Below, piece by piece: positions 1-12,638 of a DNA stretch of 38,078 bases. Both the position numbers and the translations under genes were made by a program. A model generated the notes under the pieces. It made no database searches. It was given only the letters and a program-made list of their open reading frames with translations, and was not told the DNA's origin. How positions within the stretch are numbered: position 1 is the stretch's first letter; every line of letters begins with the position of its first letter. This DNA is from a virus (taxonomy: Duplodnaviria; Heunggongvirae; Uroviricota; Caudoviricetes). The DNA is taken from the IMG/VR virus record IMGVR_UViG_2561511241_000002; one strand, given 5' to 3'.

Positions 1-1017
1 TCACACTTCTAGCGTTGCGAGGGGGTTGAATCTCAGAGCCGTCTCAAGATGATCGGGTGCTAAATGGGCATAGCGCATAGTCATTTTTATATCGTGATGT
101 CCGAGGATTTTTTGCAAAGCAAGGATATTTCCACCCGACATCATGAAGTGCGCCGCAAACGTATGGCGCAGAACGTGTGTCAGTTGACCGCGAGGGAGCA
201 CGATAGACGTTTTTTCCATCACGGATAAAAATTGAAAATAGCAGTCTGTAAAGAAATTGAACCCATCAAGCGCCATGATCTCTTCGTAAAGCTCTTTACT
301 GATAGGGATGCTTCTGTTTTTCTTCCCCTTCGTTCTTACAAAGGTAATTCGGTATTTGGTCACTTGCGAGCGGGTAAGATTTATTGCTTCTCGCCAGCGT
401 GCGCCTGTGCTTAGGCATATCTTGACTACCAGTGCCAGAATTGGGTCCTGACGTTTGCAATCAGCCAGCAGTTCAACAATCTGCTCATGGGTAAGCCATG
501 CCATCTCTTTTTCTGCGATGGTGAATTTTCGCATGTTCTCCAGTGGGTTCGGATACGACCATTCGCCCAGGCGGGATAGTTCGCTAAAAACACTACTTAG
601 ATAGCTTTGCTCCAGGTTAATGGTGACCGGGCTTGCTCCTTTCTTCCATTTCTCGCTGAAGTAGATCTCACCTGTCAGGCGTTTATCTCGATAGTGGGCA
701 AACATTTTAGAGGTTAGATCAGTTGCAAGGGGATTGCCCAGAGCGTCAACCATCAACAGCAGTTTGTCATAGACATGCTGCCCAGCTGTCAGAGATTTAC
801 CATGTAGTTTGAACCATAGCTCAATCACGTCTTTCAATGTCCGACGATCCACTGATTCGCCCAGCCAGGGCTTTGCTTCGGTTTCTTCCATCGTGTGACG
901 CTCAAAAGCCAGAGCTTCGCCTTTGGTGGCGAATTGTTTACGCACACGACGTCCACTACGTCCGGCGGGGTAACATTCGCAAAGCCATTTTCCTGTAGTG
1001 AGTTTTCGTACTGCCAT
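1..1017 (-). CDS. int: tyrosine integrase (P2/186 family)
   Basis: ORF 1..1095 (-); likely start is internal Met (MAVRKLTTGKW...) at 1017; C-terminal tyrosine-recombinase signature ...LRHTFAAHFMMSGG...HHDIKMTMRYAHL. Stop codon occupies positions 1-3. Confidence 0.9.
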   Translation of the reverse strand: MAVRKLTTGKWLCECYPAGRSGRRVRKQFATKGEALAFERHTMEETEAKPWLGESVDRRTLKDVIELWFKLHGKSLTAGQHVYDKLLLMVDALGNPLATDLTSKMFAHYRDKRLTGEIYFSEKWKKGASPVTINLEQSYLSSVFSELSRLGEWSYPNPLENMRKFTIAEKEMAWLTHEQIVELLADCKRQDPILALVVKICLSTGARWREAINLTRSQVTKYRITFVRTKGKKNRSIPISKELYEEIMALDGFNFFTDCYFQFLSVMEKTSIVLPRGQLTHVLRHTFAAHFMMSGGNILALQKILGHHDIKMTMRYAHLAPDHLETALRFNPLATLEV

Positions 1018-1046
1018 AAAAAATGCCCTCCAGTAGAGAGCATTTT

Positions 1047-1066
1047 TACTGTATGTATAACCAGTG
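1047..1066. promoter_or_regulatory. LexA-box-like sequence (CTG-N10-CAG) upstream of int
   Basis: TACTGTATGTATAACCAGTG matches the E. coli SOS box consensus TACTGTATATATATACAGTA at 16/20 positions including both CTG/CAG arms. Confidence 0.3.
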
Positions 1067-1203
1067 TCAATGTATGAAATCCTGCGACCATACATCTCAC
1101 TGAAGCCATAATGAAGTTAGCTATTTTTTGCTATGTGAGTATGTGACTTTTGCGGTTAGCCTGCGGCTCATTGTTATATTAGGCGCAGATATAAAAGCAA
1201 AAT

Positions 1204-1395
1204 TTATCGCGAGTTTTTAGTACAGATTTTTTTTGATTTACTAATAGTTCCATCATTGCAAACGAACTTTCCATCGGAGGTACAGTGAGAGACACCTCCC
1301 TTTTTCCCAGAACAAGGATAATTTTTAGCATAGGTAGTTAGTGGGTTTAATAACAAAGAGCATGATAAAACCACAAAAAATACCTTACCAAGCAT
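1204..1395 (-). CDS. small secreted cysteine-containing protein (63 aa), cargo between cI and int
   Basis: ATG at 1395 preceded by strong SD (GGGAGGA); N-terminal signal peptide [23 protein letters not shown]; four Cys in the mature part; AT-rich relative to phage backbone. Confidence 0.6.
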
Positions 1396-1410
1396 AGTTT
1401 CCTCCCGGTA

Positions 1411-1980
1411 TTACCTAACGTACTTAATTGTTAAACTTATAATTTTCCCAATTATTTCAACATCTTCTATCTTGCACTCGAAGGCTCTGTTTCCACCCTC
1501 GACGAAGATTCTTCCACCGGGTAAACGAGTAATGTCACGGATCGTTATTTCGCCATCAATACTTATTACCCATTTACCATCACGTATATCATCAAATTCC
1601 TTATCACAAATAAATTCAGAATTATTATCTGTGATTACAAAAAGATTCTTGAATGCCGACGGTAGAAATTCTCTATCGAAAATATAAAAACCGTCTTCAC
1701 ACAAGGCCCCATCAGATAATACATATTTAGCAACTTCCATAGTATTTGTATTACCTGAAGTTTGCTTTGAACCATGCCCGGTTGTGAGCCAATTAAGTGA
1801 GGTGCCTGTTTCAAGGGCGCACTGGATTACCCATTCTGCTGGGAATGAGTCACGCATGTAGCGTGTGGCGAGTGTACTTTTAGAGATTCCTAAATGATCG
1901 CACAACGCCTGTCGAGTCTTGAATCCATAAGCTTCTACCATGCGCTCTATAGCGCCTCGTCCGCCTTTCTCCAAATTCAT
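1411..1980 (-). CDS. cI: 186-type CI immunity repressor (about 189 aa)
   Basis: HTH segment RQALCDHLGISKSTLATRYMRD near N-terminus; length and position (between int and the divergent apl/cII genes) match phage 186 CI rather than the 99-aa P2 C. Start chosen at ATG 1980 (GGAG 5 nt upstream). Confidence 0.75.
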   Translation of the reverse strand: MNLEKGGRGAIERMVEAYGFKTRQALCDHLGISKSTLATRYMRDSFPAEWVIQCALETGTSLNWLTTGHGSKQTSGNTNTMEVAKYVLSDGALCEDGFYIFDREFLPSAFKNLFVITDNNSEFICDKEFDDIRDGKWVISIDGEITIRDITRLPGGRIFVEGGNRAFECKIEDVEIIGKIISLTIKYVR

Positions 1981-2009
1981 GGTCACTCCAAGTGAACTTT
2001 TATCTTGAC

Positions 2010-2876: not shown

Positions 2877-3077
2877 ATGCTGACGAAAGAACCATCATTT
2901 GCATCGCTGCTGGTAAAGCAAAGCCCGGCAATGCACTACGGTCACGGCTGGATCATGGGTGAGGATGGAAAACGCTGGCATCCGTGCCGTTCACAAGATG
3001 AATTGCTGGCAGAACTATCTACGAAAAAACGGGGGAACAAATGGCTATTGAAGGCGCTGCGGCGACTGTTCCATTAA
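2877..3077 (+). CDS. hypothetical early protein (66 aa)
   Basis: ATG 2877 with GAGG SD; part of rightward early operon. Confidence 0.45.
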   Translation: MLTKEPSFASLLVKQSPAMHYGHGWIMGEDGKRWHPCRSQDELLAELSTKKRGNKWLLKALRRLFH

Positions 3078-8052: not shown

Positions 8053-8087
8053 TACTGTAAATATAAACAGTGGTTATGTATACAGTA
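8053..8087 (+). promoter_or_regulatory. SOS operator: tandem LexA boxes overlapping the promoter of the DinI-like operon
   Basis: Box 1 TACTGTAAATATAAACAGTG (perfect CTGT-N8-ACAG) at 8053-8072; overlapping weaker box CAGTGGTTATGTATACAGTA at 8068-8087; TTTACA/TATACT promoter-like hexamers just upstream. Confidence 0.65.
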
Positions 8088-8112
8088 TTGCTTTGGTGTC
8101 ATAGGAGGAAAG

Positions 8113-8301
8113 ATGCAGGACTATTTTTTGGAGTCTTTGAAGCTCCAGCGCATTGATTTTTTTCTTAAGCTTGTAGCGGCTAGTGAGTGTAGTGATGAAG
8201 AGAAGGGGCTGGCCCTGCAGTGGGTTTCTGAACTGACAGATGAACTCATGGCAAAAATCAGAACCCATGAATACAACCGCTCAATGGATGTCATCAGCTG
8301 A
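8113..8301 (+). CDS. hypothetical protein (62 aa), first gene of SOS-regulated operon
   Basis: ATG 8113 preceded by AGGAGGA; may correspond to the N-terminal part of a 186 Tum-like antirepressor, here as a separate ORF. Confidence 0.5.
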   Translation: MQDYFLESLKLQRIDFFLKLVAASECSDEEKGLALQWVSELTDELMAKIRTHEYNRSMDVIS

Positions 8302-8311
8302 GGTGACTTTT

Positions 8312-8545
8312 ATGCGCATTGAAATAATGATCGATAAAGAGCAGAAGATTAGCCAGTCTACACTGGACGCCCTTGAATCCGAGCTTTACCGCAATCTGCG
8401 CCCCCTGTATCCCAAAACGGTAATTCGTATCCGCAAAGGTAGCTCTAACGGTGTGGAACTGACCGGACTGCAACTGGACGAAGAAAGAAAACAAGTGATG
8501 AAAATTATGCAGAAGGTCTGGGAGGACGACAGCTGGTTACACTAG
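8312..8545 (+). CDS. DinI-family protein (77 aa)
   Basis: MRIEIMIDK...DALESEL...VWEDDSWLH parallels E. coli DinI (MRIEVTIAK...WESADDW); ATG 8312 with GAGGTG SD. Confidence 0.8.
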   Translation: MRIEIMIDKEQKISQSTLDALESELYRNLRPLYPKTVIRIRKGSSNGVELTGLQLDEERKQVMKIMQKVWEDDSWLH

Positions 8546-9000: not shown

Positions 9001-9951
9001 GTGAGGGACAGCCAGACTAAAGATGCAGTAATTGTTTTATACCGTGAAGTGGGGAACGGTAACGGAATACATGGTATTAAGGTCGGTTCTAAAGTAAGTG
9101 GTGATAGTAAAGGAACCATTAGGGCGGGAAGAGAACATGGTGAGGATAAAATAATTTGGGGTGAACCCTGCTATTACTGGATTATTCCTGAGTTGAATAA
9201 AATAGCATCAATCAGATTCCCCCATTCTTTCGCTGATACTTATCTCTTCGCACAATACTTCATTCAGCATGTAAATAATAATAGTAAGTTAGGTAAAAGA
9301 ACGAAATCTAAGCGTACATTTGAATCAGCTAAGACCCCTGGTCGTTGTGTGGATGTCTACAATACTAAGTTTCAATATAAAGATGGCAAAAATGAGATAA
9401 ACTGTATCTTCAAGTTTGTATTGGAAGAAACAAAACTTAAAGCCGCTGAGGAAAACTTTGAAAGGTTAAGGCATAAAATTACACACACATTGATAAAGGA
9501 TACAACGGTAATAAACCAAAATGACACAAGGCAACCATTGTTGAAGCTAACAAGTGTAGCTTTAGCATCTCTGGTGGGTGAAGAAAAGCGTAATAAGCTT
9601 ATTGGGGCACCTCCTGTTTTGGAGCAGCCTCGTAAAATTGAAGTTAAAATTGACGGTGCACCATCATCGGATGAGCTTCGAAATCTCTTCTCAATGAGAG
9701 GTGAAGAGTCTGAATGGGATGTGGGTTTTTTACTGGCTGATCGTGCTAATCCGGTTTGGCTCAGTAGCTATGTAGCCAGGACTAAACTTCCTCTTCAAGA
9801 TTCGGATGGGTTTGAGCATTATTCAGCGCGTTTTTTACTGGATGAAATAAACAAAATTCGTGATGATTTGATTAGTGAAGTAAAATATGCTGAGGAAGCA
9901 TCCATTAAAGAATCTGAAGCTGCATCCACAAAAAAGATAGCGGAAGGTTGA
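9001..9951 (+). CDS. uncharacterised cargo protein (316 aa from GTG 9001), first gene of two-gene operon; frame stays open upstream to 8752/8788 apart from one in-frame TGA at 8914
   Basis: AT-rich ORF; stop overlaps the next gene start (TGATATG). Upstream in-frame segment carries a strong SD (AAGGAG, 5 nt before GTG 8788). Candidate Rx4-6H element in ERLRHKITH (weak). Confidence 0.6.
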   Translation: MRDSQTKDAVIVLYREVGNGNGIHGIKVGSKVSGDSKGTIRAGREHGEDKIIWGEPCYYWIIPELNKIASIRFPHSFADTYLFAQYFIQHVNNNSKLGKRTKSKRTFESAKTPGRCVDVYNTKFQYKDGKNEINCIFKFVLEETKLKAAEENFERLRHKITHTLIKDTTVINQNDTRQPLLKLTSVALASLVGEEKRNKLIGAPPVLEQPRKIEVKIDGAPSSDELRNLFSMRGEESEWDVGFLLADRANPVWLSSYVARTKLPLQDSDGFEHYSARFLLDEINKIRDDLISEVKYAEEASIKESEAASTKKIAEG

Positions 9952-9952
9952 T

Positions 9953-10489
9953 ATGACAGAAACGGAAGGTTTGATAATAACAGTTGCAAAACAGCAGGCG
10001 ATTAATTTTGTTGCTGTTGTTTTGTGCTGCGTTATAAGCTATTTTTCGTTCAAAAGTTTTTCCTATAATGATGCAAAAGATATTTTAGGTGCGCTTATAA
10101 ATATTTCAGCATCTATATTCACTATTGTCGGTTTATGGGTCGGTTTTTTATATCCGAATGCAATGAATAGTATTGTTAAGGATGATGTAAGTTATATAAA
10201 AAATGAGCATGACTCACCAAGAATAGAGAAATTAGTTTATACAATAATCACATCTGCTTGTGTTATGGCTGGGATTCTAATTTTCTTTTTGGTTAAGGCA
10301 GTGTTTTATGCATTACCTGTTTATCAAGCTAATAAAGACTTGTTTAAATACATTGGTATTTTCTTCATTTACTTTATTAGCTGGATGCAATTAAAATGCG
10401 TTATGAGCCTGATTTTGAGTAATTTACATTTTGTTAATCACTTACATGGACGTTTAGCAAAAGCGAAATTAGAACACTATGATGAATAA
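9953..10489 (+). CDS. small integral membrane protein with four predicted TM helices (178 aa)
   Basis: Four hydrophobic segments (INFVAVVLCCVISYFSF, ILGALINISASIFTIVGLWVGFLY, LVYTIITSACVMAGILIFFLV, YIGIFFIYFISWMQL); translationally coupled to the upstream gene. Confidence 0.7.
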   Translation: MTETEGLIITVAKQQAINFVAVVLCCVISYFSFKSFSYNDAKDILGALINISASIFTIVGLWVGFLYPNAMNSIVKDDVSYIKNEHDSPRIEKLVYTIITSACVMAGILIFFLVKAVFYALPVYQANKDLFKYIGIFFIYFISWMQLKCVMSLILSNLHFVNHLHGRLAKAKLEHYDE

Positions 10490-10633
10490 AGTGTTCGTAT
10501 TGGCAGGAGTTACTGTGGATGTTTAACCTCAACAAGAGTAAGCCTCCTTTAACATGGGAATCACCGTTCTAACAAGCTTTGCATGTCTATGCTGCATGAA
10601 TCCGCATGATCGTTTTAGGATCGTTTTTGCTGA

Positions 10634-10658
10634 GGCCCGCCAGAACTGGCGGGCTTTT
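10634..10658. terminator. GC-rich hairpin with flanking T/A runs (bidirectional intrinsic terminator)
   Basis: GGCCCGCCAG-aa-CTGGCGGGC followed by TTTT; T-run also on the other side. Confidence 0.55.
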
Positions 10659-10702
10659 GCTTATGTCATGCACCTGCATGAAAACCACTACATAAAGCGG
10701 GC

Positions 10703-10721
10703 AGGCGTGGCGGGGATACGA
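10703..10721. other. candidate cos cohesive-end core (P2/186-like)
   Basis: GGCGTGGCGGGGATACGAG: first 13 nt identical to the 186 cohesive end as I recall it (GGCGTGGCGGGGAAAGCAT), 15/19 overall; sits in a GC-richer non-coding stretch between two AT-rich cargo blocks. Confidence 0.3.
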
Positions 10722-10856
10722 GCGCGCTCTGATATGAAAATCTGAACAAAAAATTACAAAATGGTATCTTTTTGTTGCTATCATCATTTTTGATGGTAAC
10801 TTAACCTTTTCAGTTTCTATATTATAAAATTCTATCCAGAAGAAGGAATTTGTTTC

Positions 10857-12638
10857 ATGGCTGAACTATTACCGCAAACAACTTCTATACAAACTATTTA
10901 TTCATGGTTTACTGAAGGTAAGATATTTGTTAATAGACGTTATCAACGAAAATTAGTTTGGACTGCAATAGAGAAACAAAAATTAATTGAATCCATTCAA
11001 AAAAAATATCCAATTCCTGCAGTTCTTCTCGCGGAAAGGGAAAATGATCCTGGCACATATGAAATAATTGATGGCCTACAAAGATTACATGCAATAATGT
11101 CTTTCATCGAAACAGGATATGAATCACTTGATGGAAAACGTTTTAATCTGGACGCTTTTCCCACAGCGAAAAATCGAGCGGATGAAGGTAAGTTTGTTGC
11201 AGTGAAAGCTGATAATCTTTTAAGTCAGCGTGAGGTTACTCAGTTATTGGATTATTCTCTTGCAATGTCCATTATGCGTAATGCGACTGAGAACGAAATA
11301 AATGATGTTTTTGATAGAATTAATACATACGGGCATAGACTTAGTGATCAAGAAAGGCGCCAGGCTGGTATACAAAATAAATTTTCAAATATGGTTAGGG
11401 ATATTGCCTGTTCTATCAGGGGGGATGTATCTGACGACATATTGCTTTTAGAGCAAATGCCGTCTATTAGCATTGATTTGCCACTAACTAAACATGGTTA
11501 CCAAATTCAGTCGGAAGAAGTATTTTGGGTAAAACATGGGATCTTACGTTCAACAGACCTTCGTGACAGTATGGATGAGCAATGCATTGCAGATATAGCA
11601 GCTTGTATTGTTGGAGGTAAGTTAATAGATCGTTCCAAAGATGCGCTTGATCAGATTTATAATAATGAAGATGAAGAGTATAGTCGTATTAGCTCTGCTA
11701 TTAATGTTTATGGTGAAGGAAAATTTGCAGAAGAGTTTAAATTCTGCATCCAGGAAATAACAAAAGTATGTAATAGTGACGGTGAAATTAAACTCAGGGA
11801 TTTAATCTTTACTAAACGTACTACAAATGCTTTCCCAGCCATATTTGCTGTGTTATTTATTGCTTTTCATGAATTACTCATTAAAGAAAATAAGAAGATT
11901 AATAATTATAAAGGTGTAAAAGACAATCTTAATAATATAGTCACTCGACTAGATACTAAAAGATCTGCTACTGGTGGGGAAGAGAGAAGAAAGAATATTA
12001 ATTCTATCATAGGCTTGATTAAAGATAACTTTATTGATAGCGCCGATAGCAGTCATATCTATAATTCTCACAATACGGTGGATATTGAGGATATTTTACG
12101 AAGATCTGAAATAGAGCTTGCAAATTATGAACTGAAACAGGGTTTGTTGATGTTAGGCGGAGAGCGAACTATTGATGATGGCATTCATGAGAAAATATTC
12201 TCCACAATTTGTGCTATTGCTAACATCGGTAAAGGTAACAAGAACGGTGTAGTTGGTAAGTTATTGCTTGGTGTAACAGATAAACCAAGTGATACAAGTA
12301 GAGTAAAAGAGCTTGATGATATAGATGCACATGTAGTTGGTGAGAGAAGTGTTGTTGGTGTTAAAAGAGAAGCTATTAAACTCGGCATATCAATGGAAGA
12401 ATATTATAGACGTTTTTGCGATGAGTTGAAAAAATCTGCTTTGAGTGAGCCTCTTAAATCACAAGTGGTGAGTTTGATTGACTATAATGACTTTTATGGT
12501 TATGGAGTTATAGTTATTACAATTCCACTTCTAGCATCTTATTCTAGTTATGATGGGGATATTTATTATCGTGCTGGCGATAATACCGTAAAAGCAACAG
12601 TTATCGAAGCAGCAGATATTGCAACACGTTTTAAATGA
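10857..12638 (+). CDS. DUF262 (ParB/GmrS-like N-terminal domain) protein, 593 aa, C-terminal region unassigned
   Basis: N-terminal RRYQRKLVWTAIEKQKLIESI and EIIDGLQRLHAI match the DUF262 signature (FQR..vW...Q..LIdS; IIDGQQR); no H-x-x-P His-Me finger (DUF1524) motif seen in the C-terminal half. Very AT-rich. Confidence 0.8.
   Translation: MAELLPQTTSIQTIYSWFTEGKIFVNRRYQRKLVWTAIEKQKLIESIQKKYPIPAVLLAERENDPGTYEIIDGLQRLHAIMSFIETGYESLDGKRFNLDAFPTAKNRADEGKFVAVKADNLLSQREVTQLLDYSLAMSIMRNATENEINDVFDRINTYGHRLSDQERRQAGIQNKFSNMVRDIACSIRGDVSDDILLLEQMPSISIDLPLTKHGYQIQSEEVFWVKHGILRSTDLRDSMDEQCIADIAACIVGGKLIDRSKDALDQIYNNEDEEYSRISSAINVYGEGKFAEEFKFCIQEITKVCNSDGEIKLRDLIFTKRTTNAFPAIFAVLFIAFHELLIKENKKINNYKGVKDNLNNIVTRLDTKRSATGGEERRKNINSIIGLIKDNFIDSADSSHIYNSHNTVDIEDILRRSEIELANYELKQGLLMLGGERTIDDGIHEKIFSTICAIANIGKGNKNGVVGKLLLGVTDKPSDTSRVKELDDIDAHVVGERSVVGVKREAIKLGISMEEYYRRFCDELKKSALSEPLKSQVVSLIDYNDFYGYGVIVITIPLLASYSSYDGDIYYRAGDNTVKATVIEAADIATRFK

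Follow-up and report, generated by a model that had tools for sequence, protein, structure and literature searches.

This analysis indicated that the DNA between the immunity repressor gene cI and the integrase gene int of an E. coli prophage, which is 186-like, probably consists of a YdcA-family accessory gene carried on the immunity transcript and of an SOS-controlled int cassette made of a LexA box, a promoter (Pint) and a hairpin. In this reading of the window, i.e., the whole stretch of 38,078 nucleotides that was analysed, the sequence features are observed, as are their conservation and co-occurrence, and we infer that LexA binds, that the promoter is active, where transcription starts, that the hairpin terminates or masks, and what the YdcA-family protein does. 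The earlier note on this DNA had placed a small ORF within a cI-int operon. One part of this stood, as synteny after cI supports an accessory gene on the cI transcript, but int, with a predicted promoter and a hairpin of its own, probably does not just close such an operon.

The int gene (1..1017, minus strand, ATG at 1017-1015) encodes a 338-aa tyrosine integrase of the P2/186 type (Pfam Int_N and Phage_integrase), 56% identical to Int of phage 186, and cI (1411..1986, minus strand; RefSeq start at 1980) encodes a 186-type immunity repressor (Pfam Phage_CI_repr and Phage_CI_C), 32% identical to 186 CI. The likeness to 186 extends to a CII (Phage_CP76) family protein, to a gene in the position of Apl and to an operon with LexA-like operators that encodes a DinI-like half of Tum, where 186 has its LexA-repressed p95-tum. 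By contrast, cI and int of 186 overlap by 1 nt with nothing between them, and the sole LexA site of that phage is at p95, whereas here the two genes are parted by a cargo gene, by a predicted promoter with a LexA box and by a hairpin that bears a U-run. All of these lie in the 393 nt (1018-1410) that follow the cI stop codon (1411-1413), and the int start neither abuts nor overlaps this stop as it would in a coupling of the 186 type. The match to the int modules of other genera stops at about 1075-1080, 5-10 nt upstream of the Pint -35, and the region is made of two separate units with a module boundary near 1075-1080. The spacer from the YdcA-family gene to Pint (1076..1203, minus strand) is specific to the E. 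coli variant, and no canonical terminator downstream of the YdcA-family gene was found in it. A search of Rfam with positions 900-2400 gave no match at E <= 1.

The predicted LexA (SOS) box, TACTGTATGTATAACCAGTG, occupies positions 1047..1066 (no strand assigned), with its core CTGTATGTATAACCAG (CTG-N10-CAG) at 1049-1064, and matches the consensus TACTG(TA)5CAGTA at 16/20 positions, the very count given in the earlier note for a LexA-like box between the ORF and int. Scored with a matrix of 27 E. coli LexA sites, themselves scoring 13-27, it reached 23.6, the tied best value of the 38-kb window; the sole comparable sites were 8053-8072 (23.5) and 8068-8087 (15.6), and the next best scored 8.5. 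When this matrix was checked on phage 186, the annotated LexA site of p95 was the single top match in 10 kb (27.0; next 10.9). In 300 first-order Markov simulations of the window, neither a score of 23.6 nor a 16/20 match ever arose. As judged from its sequence, the box has the look of a genuine SOS operator of int, to which LexA would bind.

The position of this box is that of an operator within a promoter. Pint, a predicted sigma-70 promoter (1042..1070, minus strand), is composed of a -35 TTGACA (1070-1065), a 17-nt spacer and a -10 AAAAAT (1047-1042), and its scan score of 10/12 was the best within 850-2400. The -10 is only a 4/6 match (AAAAAT here, TAAATT in relatives). Across 37 distinct relatives, the -35 columns show little or no variation. 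The core CTG-N10-CAG fills the 17-nt spacer, and does so equally in the relative locus L006. The recA promoter has the form TTGATA-CTGTATGAGCATACAG-TATAAT, in which CTG-N10-CAG likewise fills the entire -35/-10 spacer. The layout of the window, TTGACA-CTGGTTATACATACAG-(T)AAAAAT, resembles it, with a weaker -10 and a different class of gene. On the opposite (plus) strand, a promoter using the box was sought and none was found. Because a start usually lies 7 nt after the -10, transcription from Pint is predicted to begin at about 1035-1034, which is the end of the 5' arm of the hairpin. Taken as a prediction, int most likely has its own promoter controlled by DNA damage through LexA, and the suggestion that the box could couple int to DNA damage gains support from its place in the spacer of the int promoter and from its fixed position in 41 loci (see below).

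The two other sites of comparable score are predicted, overlapping LexA boxes (8053..8087, plus strand) upstream of a split tum-like SOS operon. Its first ORF (8113-8301, plus strand, 62 aa) is a candidate antirepressor, in view of its position and of the literature on Fels-2 and PSP3; BLAST detected no similarity between it and 186 Tum, N-terminal half included. The second ORF (8312-8545, plus strand; Pfam DinI) is DinI-like and shares 41% identity with the C-terminal half of 186 Tum. The window, unlike 186, has Tum in two pieces, in line with the split tum described for Fels-2 and PSP3 (PMC3121763).

Conservation among int relatives was evaluated at 68 scorable loci, 41 of which carry the box, with scores of 15-27 and an end situated 27-34 nt before the ATG; these loci are phylogenetically related, and such counts overstate their independence. 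Int identity in the 41 loci goes from 99% down to 54%, and the box is present in at least 15 genera (Escherichia, Klebsiella, Enterobacter, Raoultella, Citrobacter, Kluyvera, Serratia, Yersinia, Hafnia, Rahnella, Pantoea, Pectobacterium, Mixta, Erwinia, and Brenneria). In these loci, the promoter, the box and a hairpin burying the ribosome-binding site recur together upstream of int, with stems that differ between clades. The invariant columns of the alignment are the -35 region, (C)TG and CAGT, while the N10 spacer and the leader vary. Furthermore, cI abuts int in none of the 41 loci with the box, versus 15 of the 27 loci without it (Fisher 4e-8, uncorrected for phylogeny).

These observations also bear on the possibility that the palindrome is not a LexA operator. 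It could have arisen by chance, or be the site of a phage protein (CI, Apl/Cox, or Int) or of IHF, with int expressed solely by read-through of the cI operon as in 186. Indeed, another dimeric protein could in principle use an AT-rich palindrome of 16 bp, and int is truly made from the cI transcript in 186 and HP2. We nevertheless consider this explanation highly improbable: the simulations exclude chance, conservation falls exactly on the LexA half-sites CTG and CAG and not on the drifting spacer, and the same motif marks the tum operator both in the window and in 186. The motif is moreover kept across prophages in which cI is 29-98% identical or in which no cI is found within 3 kb, and this persistence despite a differing or absent cI speaks for a factor of the host and not of the phage. 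It is kept as well in loci where int follows D-ogr. Control of int by LexA thus remains the preferred reading. In the literature searched, we found no earlier description of a LexA box at int in P2/186-like phages, and one may exist elsewhere; a comparison of P2-like regulatory regions makes no mention of LexA or SOS (PMC3448106), and a search on phage integrases and the LexA regulon brought up just one case, from Firmicutes (PMC3998124). The attP or Int arm sites were also considered as a source of the palindrome, and rejected: the attachment site of relatives lies beyond the 3' end of int.

A hairpin, AAAAAUGCUCUC-UACUG-GAGGGCAUUUUU, stands directly before the int ATG (1019..1047, minus strand; RNAfold -14.5 kcal/mol, z = -6.4) and is also present in a 211-nt fold. 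It is composed of a 6-bp GC core and an A:U extension (13 pairs by RNAfold), followed by U6. The U-run (1023-1018) lies in its 3' arm, as does GGAGG (1031-1027), the ribosome-binding site of int. The terminator scan omitted this hairpin, probably because its U-run pairs with the upstream A-run, and called the L006 version a terminator, the promoter ending there at 2974 and the terminator stem starting at 2976. Equivalent hairpins were found in 34-35 of the 37 distinct leaders with the box, with at least 8 different stem sequences. They were judged by per-sequence energies, shuffles and two negative controls; MAFFT sets the stems of different clades out of register, and a hand alignment based on the folds would be circular. 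The leaders with the box had a median energy of -11.6 kcal/mol, z < -2 in 34/37 and a paired ribosome-binding site in 35/37, as against a median of -1.9 kcal/mol and z < -2 in 1/26 for the int leaders without a box, and -2.95 kcal/mol and 4/34 for segments located 150 nt upstream.

From a mechanistic point of view, the window hairpin is terminator-like toward transcripts coming from cI and the YdcA-family gene, and it should stop or silence such read-through. A U-run is present in only 17 of the 37 relative leaders, so termination is not the universal role of the hairpin. The distance from box to ATG is just about 30 nt; a hairpin that includes the ribosome-binding site must therefore begin near the -10, and a start inside the hairpin is in part a forced geometry. 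A different arrangement, which we regard as unlikely, retains the LexA-controlled promoter with a start upstream of the stem. The Pint mRNA would then include the hairpin, which would stabilise its 5' end or act as a brake that holds Int translation low on all transcripts, and might also be a target of Int autoregulation, with no discrimination between read-through and SOS transcripts. Autoregulation by Int has reportedly been described in P2, and P2 too has a hairpin between C and int. In the window, TACAGT within the box is a 4/6 match to a -10 that would set the start before the stem, and 20 of the 37 leaders are devoid of a U-run. However, TACAGT has no acceptable -35 at 16-18 nt, while the conserved TTGACA/TTGACC is correctly spaced for the downstream -10. 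In addition, the hairpin is found together with the promoter and is missing from loci with int coupled to cI, which fits an insulating role. A start inside the hairpin is thus the reading that we retain.

On the other side of the module boundary, comparison with relatives shows that the DNA between cI and Pint is a variable cargo slot, in which the YdcA-family ORF is one of many alternative cargoes. The slot of relatives contains anti-phage defence genes, with PD-Lambda-1, PDC-S20/KAP NTPase, PDC-M18A, HEC-01, AbiU and HEPN proteins, and these neighbouring cargo genes match PADLOC models. The YdcA-family gene (1204..1395, minus strand, 63 aa) starts 15 nt past the cI stop codon, with a ribosome-binding site GGGAGG (1401-1406) situated 5 nt ahead of its ATG. 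Its predicted signal peptide covers approximately residues 1-23, with a K-containing n-region, a hydrophobic core and TYA|KN, the cleavage site being taken from the sequence and the homologue alignment, and leaves a mature part of about 40 aa; the AlphaFold model has a helix at residues 3-15. In an alignment of 20 homologues, the N-terminal hydrophobic segment varies freely and the mature part is near-invariant from (K/R)NYPCSG on, with invariant C28, C38, C46 and C58; a fifth cysteine, C12, lies inside the signal peptide and is not conserved. The strong Shine-Dalgarno sequence, the signal peptide and the four mature cysteines described in the earlier note were thus all confirmed at the sequence level. 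So was the AT-richness of the ORF (34% GC over 1201-1400 vs 45-51% in int), the 3' half of cI being just as AT-rich.

The search for homologues led to a family. The PADLOC models of defence systems gave no match to the YdcA-family protein. By its sequence matches, the ORF product is a member of the YdcA family and not an orphan: it matched NCBIfam NF007463 (116.1 bits; cut-off 93) and phrog_6000 (E = 4.6e-34), 59 of 65 homologues carry a precomputed PF27300 match, and its RefSeq name is "YdcA family protein." The resources for this family are PF27300, the NCBIfam PRK10040 models and E. coli K-12 ydcA. The local Pfam search gave just a sub-threshold chance match for this ORF, and the PF27300 model is absent from that copy of Pfam. 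The window protein is the phage-borne paralogue, since it passes NF007463 and fails NF007462 (68 vs 118 bits), which we take to be the K-12 ydcA model. For K-12 ydcA itself, only a loose link to acid and 3-hydroxypropionate tolerance is described (PMC7642389). Foldseek against viral structures returned nothing meaningful for the ORF product, and its closest solved relative is Legionella Dis2, the remaining PDB matches being noise. Dis2 (Lpg0823) is a protein of the Dot/Icm outer-membrane complex, pinned by disulfides that have been mapped (PMC8486379). It shares with the YdcA family a signal peptide followed by a conserved motif including FVCNDG..SKSK..C; Dis2 has two YdcA-type lobes and is located near the outer membrane, whereas the window protein is a single lobe.

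Among 5,426 complete E. coli genomes, at least 589 carry the arrangement of the window, with 92-100% identity, and both Haemophilus phage HP2 and other 186-like prophages have a divergent YdcA-family gene immediately behind cI. In HP2 and S2, which belong to another P2-like branch, an unannotated 60-aa YdcA-family ORF follows cI and precedes int, and in HP2 its start codon overlaps the cI stop. HP2 differs from the window in that cI, YdcA, orf1(S) and int are packed, with stops and starts overlapping or nearly so, and no intergenic room is left directly upstream of int for a promoter of the Pint type, a box or a hairpin. Relatives with cI-YdcA-KAP NTPase-int or cI-YdcA-347 aa-int, together with the 128 nt of unique spacer located in the window where a second gene would stand, could suggest that the ORF is what passively remains of a larger cargo (e.g., YdcA plus KAP-NTPase, the NTPase having been deleted), without a role of its own. 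This is quite unlikely, in view of the intact ORF, its preserved ribosome-binding site, its spread among E. coli genomes at such high identity, a mature peptide that is near-invariant from Escherichia to Moraxella and Haemophilus, and the occurrence of the family alone in unrelated phages and plasmids. The sequence data support instead a secreted cysteine protein, with predicted export, encoded by an accessory gene on the lysogenic cI transcript. Co-transcribed with cI from the lysogenic promoters, this gene would be expected to be expressed in lysogens. Its product would be exported through a cleavable signal peptide and give, in the periplasm or else at the outer membrane, a domain of about 40 residues that two disulfides most likely hold. 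Our best guess is that the lysogen gains from it at the level of the envelope, for instance by excluding other phages or by tolerating stress.

These elements can be assembled into a circuit. In the lysogen, LexA would occupy the 1047-1066 box inside the -35/-10 spacer of Pint, and Int would thus be off. Read-through transcripts from cI and the YdcA-family gene would either terminate at the U-run hairpin or have the int ribosome-binding site buried in the stem. DNA damage would lead to LexA cleavage and open two promoters together. The first, that of the tum-like antirepressor operon (8053-8545), would cause CI inactivation and switch Apl on. The second would be Pint, with transcripts starting inside the hairpin (about 1035-1034) and therefore missing its 5' arm, so that the ribosome-binding site would be accessible. 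For excision, Int would in this way be present at the same time as Apl. Such silence of int outside SOS means that leaky termination or read-through translation has to be assumed for the supply of Int after infection. More tentatively, we propose that the cassette may act as an insulator, a "promoter inside a terminator," in which the 5' arm of a terminating or masking hairpin overlaps the -10 to +1 stretch of a LexA-repressed promoter, and Int could be translated from no read-through transcript and would be made only from SOS-initiated ones. By freeing int from cI, this insulation could have opened the cI-int junction of a large P2/186-like clade to variable and constitutive cargo, i.e., defence systems or, here, a YdcA envelope protein that may be a new phage-exclusion factor.

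Guerin et al. in 2009 reportedly described LexA control of integron integrase promoters. Cambray et al. (2011; PMC3108266) deal with such control too. The predicted situation in the window is similar, with a LexA box over the promoter of a tyrosine recombinase, recombination licensed by DNA damage, and conservation across many hosts. It differs in that the recombinase is a phage integrase and not IntI, the box fills the -35/-10 spacer, and a hairpin masking the ribosome-binding site is added, as well as a LexA-controlled antirepressor elsewhere in the genome. SOS induction was already proposed to reach some phage integrases, with LexA binding to such a site in vitro (2014, PMC3998124). That work dealt with a Firmicute motif, B. 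subtilis LexA and a single metagenomic site, and includes no P2/186-like phage, promoter and hairpin anatomy or comparative series.

If confirmed, these results would mean that SOS acts at two points, antirepressor and integrase, in widespread enterobacterial P2/186-like prophages, a group which includes the prophage of E. coli B, BL21 and REL606 and of E. coli C. Such two-point control is absent from the current model of 186, and would provide a phage counterpart to the SOS-controlled integron integrase. An int gene insulated from cargo transcription would be a simple reason for the interchangeable defence genes at the cI-int junction, and the predicted promoter, operator and insulating hairpin would form a compact natural part of about 55 bp. 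Finally, the recurrent position of YdcA on the immunity transcript, together with its solved relative Dis2, offers a way into the study of a family to which a gene of E. coli K-12 belongs.

The int gene of the prophage (1-1017, minus strand; 56% identity to the phage 186 integrase) is predicted to have its own insulated SOS promoter. The LexA-like box that the earlier note had placed before int was indeed found at 1047-1066, where the 20-mer TACTGTATGTATAACCAGTG agrees with the LexA consensus at 16/20 positions and scores 23.6 with a symmetric weight matrix built from 27 E. coli LexA sites; in 300 Markov simulations, no score as high as 23.6 and no 16/20 match arose. Elsewhere in the window, high scores were confined to 8053-8072 (23.5) and the overlapping 8068-8087 (15.6), the remainder being at most 8.5. 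The matrix also passed an independent control: in 10 kb of phage 186, the annotated p95 LexA site was the single outlier (27.0, the next score being 10.9), and no LexA-matrix site was found near int. On the minus strand, the region reads cat-TTGACA-CTGGTTATACATACAG-t-AAAAAT-GCTCTC-tactg-GAGGGC-attttttATG. TTGACA, 17 nt and AAAAAT (10/12), with a modest -10 element, constituted the best match of a promoter scan of 850-2400 and face int. The CTG-N10-CAG core fills the -35/-10 spacer of this predicted promoter (Pint, 1042-1070), as the LexA core likewise does in the recA promoter. Judged from sequence, the box is very probably a genuine LexA operator, and there is a good likelihood, slightly lower, that it makes int SOS-inducible. 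Directly downstream lies a hairpin of -14.5 kcal/mol that carries GGAGG, the ribosome-binding site of int, in its 3' arm and is succeeded by U6 and then the ATG; chances slightly better than even are given to this hairpin discriminating between transcripts.

This arrangement was shared by many relatives. An Int protein scan with one genome per species gave 78 distinct loci, 68 of them scorable, and a LexA box scoring 15-27 and ending 27-34 nt before the int ATG was present in 41 of the 68. Each of these boxes had TTGACA, TTGACC, TTTACA or similar upstream and TAAAAT, TAAATT or similar downstream, in loci whose Int identity ranged from 99% down to 54% across at least 15 genera. When 37 distinct box sequences were aligned, ACATTGA (-35 region), (C)TG and CAGT were invariant and the N10 and the leader were variable, a pattern that would be expected for a host LexA operator within a promoter. 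A hairpin occurred in 34/37 box leaders (z < -2; median -11.6 kcal/mol) and the int ribosome-binding site was paired in 35/37, with at least eight different stems, including GCTCTC/GAGGGC, AGCCCTC/GAGGGCT, CCCCC/GGGGG, CACATTCTC/GAGAATGTG and ACTCTCCTAAA/TTTAGGAGAGT. As controls, int leaders without a box had a median of -1.9 kcal/mol (z < -2 in 1/26), and segments 150 nt upstream in box loci one of -2.95 kcal/mol (z < -2 in 4/34). A U-run was present in just 17 of the 37 box leaders. In Klebsiella michiganensis (L006), the predicted promoter ends at 2974 and a predicted canonical terminator stem (2976-2995) is followed by T5, with the ATG at 3001. Assuming the usual 7-nt distance from the -10 element, transcription would start towards the end of the 5' arm, or within the loop, in all clades inspected. 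Phage P2 (L097) has a different hairpin (TTCACCAT...ATGGTGAA) at about 850-876, within its 69-nt C-int gap, in which no CTG-N10-CAG was seen when read by eye.

Genome layout was associated with the presence of the box. The cI gene abutted int in none of the 41 box loci but in 15 of the 27 box-free ones (Fisher's test, 4e-8, ignoring kinship of the loci); those 15 resemble phage 186, in which the overlap of cI with int is 1 nt. In prophages of the Pectobacterium, Rahnella and Pantoea group, tail gene D and ogr precede the int cassette and share its strand; no repressor was found within 3 kb, so that the cassette is autonomous. This D-ogr-int order, observed in L026-L047 (Pectobacterium, Rahnella, Pantoea, Mixta, Erwinia), all without a cI-type repressor within 3 kb, differs from that of P2 and 186. 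Nucleotide similarity of the window to other int modules stops at 1075-1080, 5-10 nt upstream of the -35 element.

The cI-int junction, from cI up to this boundary, is a cargo slot. Among relatives (L005-L024, L048, L061, L062, L078, L081, L083-L088), it holds PD-Lambda-1 (also in the isolated phage vB_EcoM-813R9), PDC-S20 (a KAP NTPase), PDC-M18A (including in Kluyvera, L017), HEC-01 (AAA_21), AbiU, a HEPN protein and several unassigned proteins; since cargo differs among relatives, the slot is a variable accessory locus, largely of defence. To our knowledge, it is not one of the listed P2 defence hotspots. In the window, its contents are limited to a YdcA-family gene and a unique spacer of 128 nt.

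This gene, a 63-aa ORF (1204-1395, minus strand), lies between int and a 186-type cI (1411-1986, minus strand; 32% identity to 186 CI), beyond which the Apl-position gene and then cII are on the plus strand. The description in the earlier note of an AT-rich ORF between cI and int with a strong ribosome-binding site held, GGGAGG lying 5 nt ahead of an ATG situated 15 nt past the cI stop codon, and the GC content being 34%; the 3' half of cI is likewise AT-rich. The ORF is a member of the YdcA family: it matched NCBIfam NF007463 (PRK10040.1-2; 116 bits, cut-off 93) and phrog_6000, precomputed Pfam PF27300 'YdcA' was assigned to 59/65 of its database homologues, and some RefSeq copies are named 'YdcA family protein'. 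The ORF is therefore no orphan, although PADLOC offers no model for its product. Across 20 aligned members, the N-terminal hydrophobic segment varies freely and the mature part, (K/R) followed by a 31-letter protein motif, is almost invariant; the four cysteines noted earlier are fully so. For the AlphaFold model (mean pLDDT 75; 88-91 across residues 31-50), the sole credible solved relative was 7MUC/7MUD chain AN (38% identity at a Foldseek probability of 0.99; profile E = 3e-4), which we identify as Legionella Dis2/Lpg0823. Dis2 is a Dot/Icm outer-membrane cap component with no assigned function, near the outer membrane, whose two similar lobes are pinned by five disulfide bonds and for which its authors found no structural relative (PMC8486379). 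Homology between the YdcA domain and the lobe that is repeated in Dis2 supports reading the product as secreted, disulfide-bonded and envelope-located, and may be why some YdcA clusters bear the UniRef name 'conjugal transfer protein'. K-12 ydcA has been connected only loosely with tolerance of acid and 3-hydroxypropionate (PMC7642389); for the window protein, a role in exclusion or envelope protection is a guess to which we give rather low odds.

Divergent members occupy the same place in other prophages, which supports well the earlier proposal of a moron on the lysogenic transcript. The order is cI-YdcA-KAP NTPase (PDC-S20)-int in Escherichia/Citrobacter (70% identity to the window ORF), cI-YdcA-KAP NTPase-int in Klebsiella (62%), cI-YdcA-347 aa-int in Hafnia (64%) and cI-YdcA-orf1(S)-int in Haemophilus phages HP2 and S2 (73.5%, residues 27-60 only). 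The HP2 ORF (L094, NC_003315; 2486-2668, minus strand, 60 aa) is unannotated; its ATG shares a base with the stop codon of cI (TAATG), and it is followed by orf1(S), 254 aa, with a signal-peptide-like N-terminus and a Pfam tRNA_anti-like match. In S2, where the family member is likewise unannotated, the YdcA-family match was obtained by tblastn. Other family sites include the tail-gene region in Moraxella prophages, Acinetobacter phages and plasmids, Rhizobium plasmids and, in Moraxella bovoculi, a chromosomal context.

Window 1000-1450 is 100% identical to the P2/186-like prophage located beside rcdA in, among others, E. coli C and the E. coli B derivatives BL21(DE3) and REL606. Of 5,426 complete E. 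coli genomes, 825 carried part or whole of this stretch and 589 no less than 80% of it. The BL21(DE3) copy (L001, NC_012971.2 869498-877948) is decayed: cII and the replication gene bear annotations as truncated pseudogenes, and beyond the DinI-like gene lies an effector of the retron St85 family. The stretch spanning int, YdcA and cI is nevertheless intact there and shows no difference from the window.

In 186-like phages, SOS control of the tum antirepressor is well established, and integron integrases are known to be controlled likewise through a LexA box at the promoter, as reportedly found by Guerin in 2009 and as described in Cambray 2011 (PMC3108266). LexA also bound in vitro to a LexA site upstream of one Firmicute phage integrase, and it was suggested that phage integrases, too, may come under SOS control (PMC3998124). 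For P2/186-like phages, no account of an int promoter controlled by LexA turned up within an incomplete coverage of the literature, where an earlier one is possible; a comparison dedicated to P2-like regulatory regions mentions neither LexA nor SOS (PMC3448106).

The pair of overlapping boxes at 8053/8068 closely precedes a 62-aa ORF and a DinI-like one, the latter with 41% identity to the C-terminal half of 186 Tum. Window 8053-8545 thereby represents the tum SOS operon of 186 in split form, an arrangement reported for Fels-2 and PSP3 (PMC3121763). Since no similarity to 186 Tum was detectable for the 62-aa ORF, only its position suggests an antirepressor role. Downstream of this operon, a candidate defence pair, PDC-M18A/PDC-M18B (9001-9951 and 9953-10489), together with a GmrSD_N/NsnA-like protein of 593 aa (10857-12638), makes 9001-12638 a second accessory hotspot of the prophage.

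Taken together, the observation in the earlier note is confirmed and its interpretation supported, refined in three respects: the predicted insulated SOS promoter of int, the membership of the ORF in the YdcA family, and the cargo slot at the junction. In the most probable mechanism, cI and the YdcA gene would be transcribed in the lysogen from lysogenic promoters, and the hairpin with its U-run (1019-1047) would be the first terminator-like structure met by this transcript; read-through would give a transcript in which the int ribosome-binding site is buried, while LexA would occupy Pint. Upon DNA damage, LexA would leave both the tum-like operon and Pint, CI would be inactivated and Apl made from the lytic promoter. 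Transcripts from Pint, starting inside the hairpin, would have a free ribosome-binding site, and Int and Apl would then be present together for excision.
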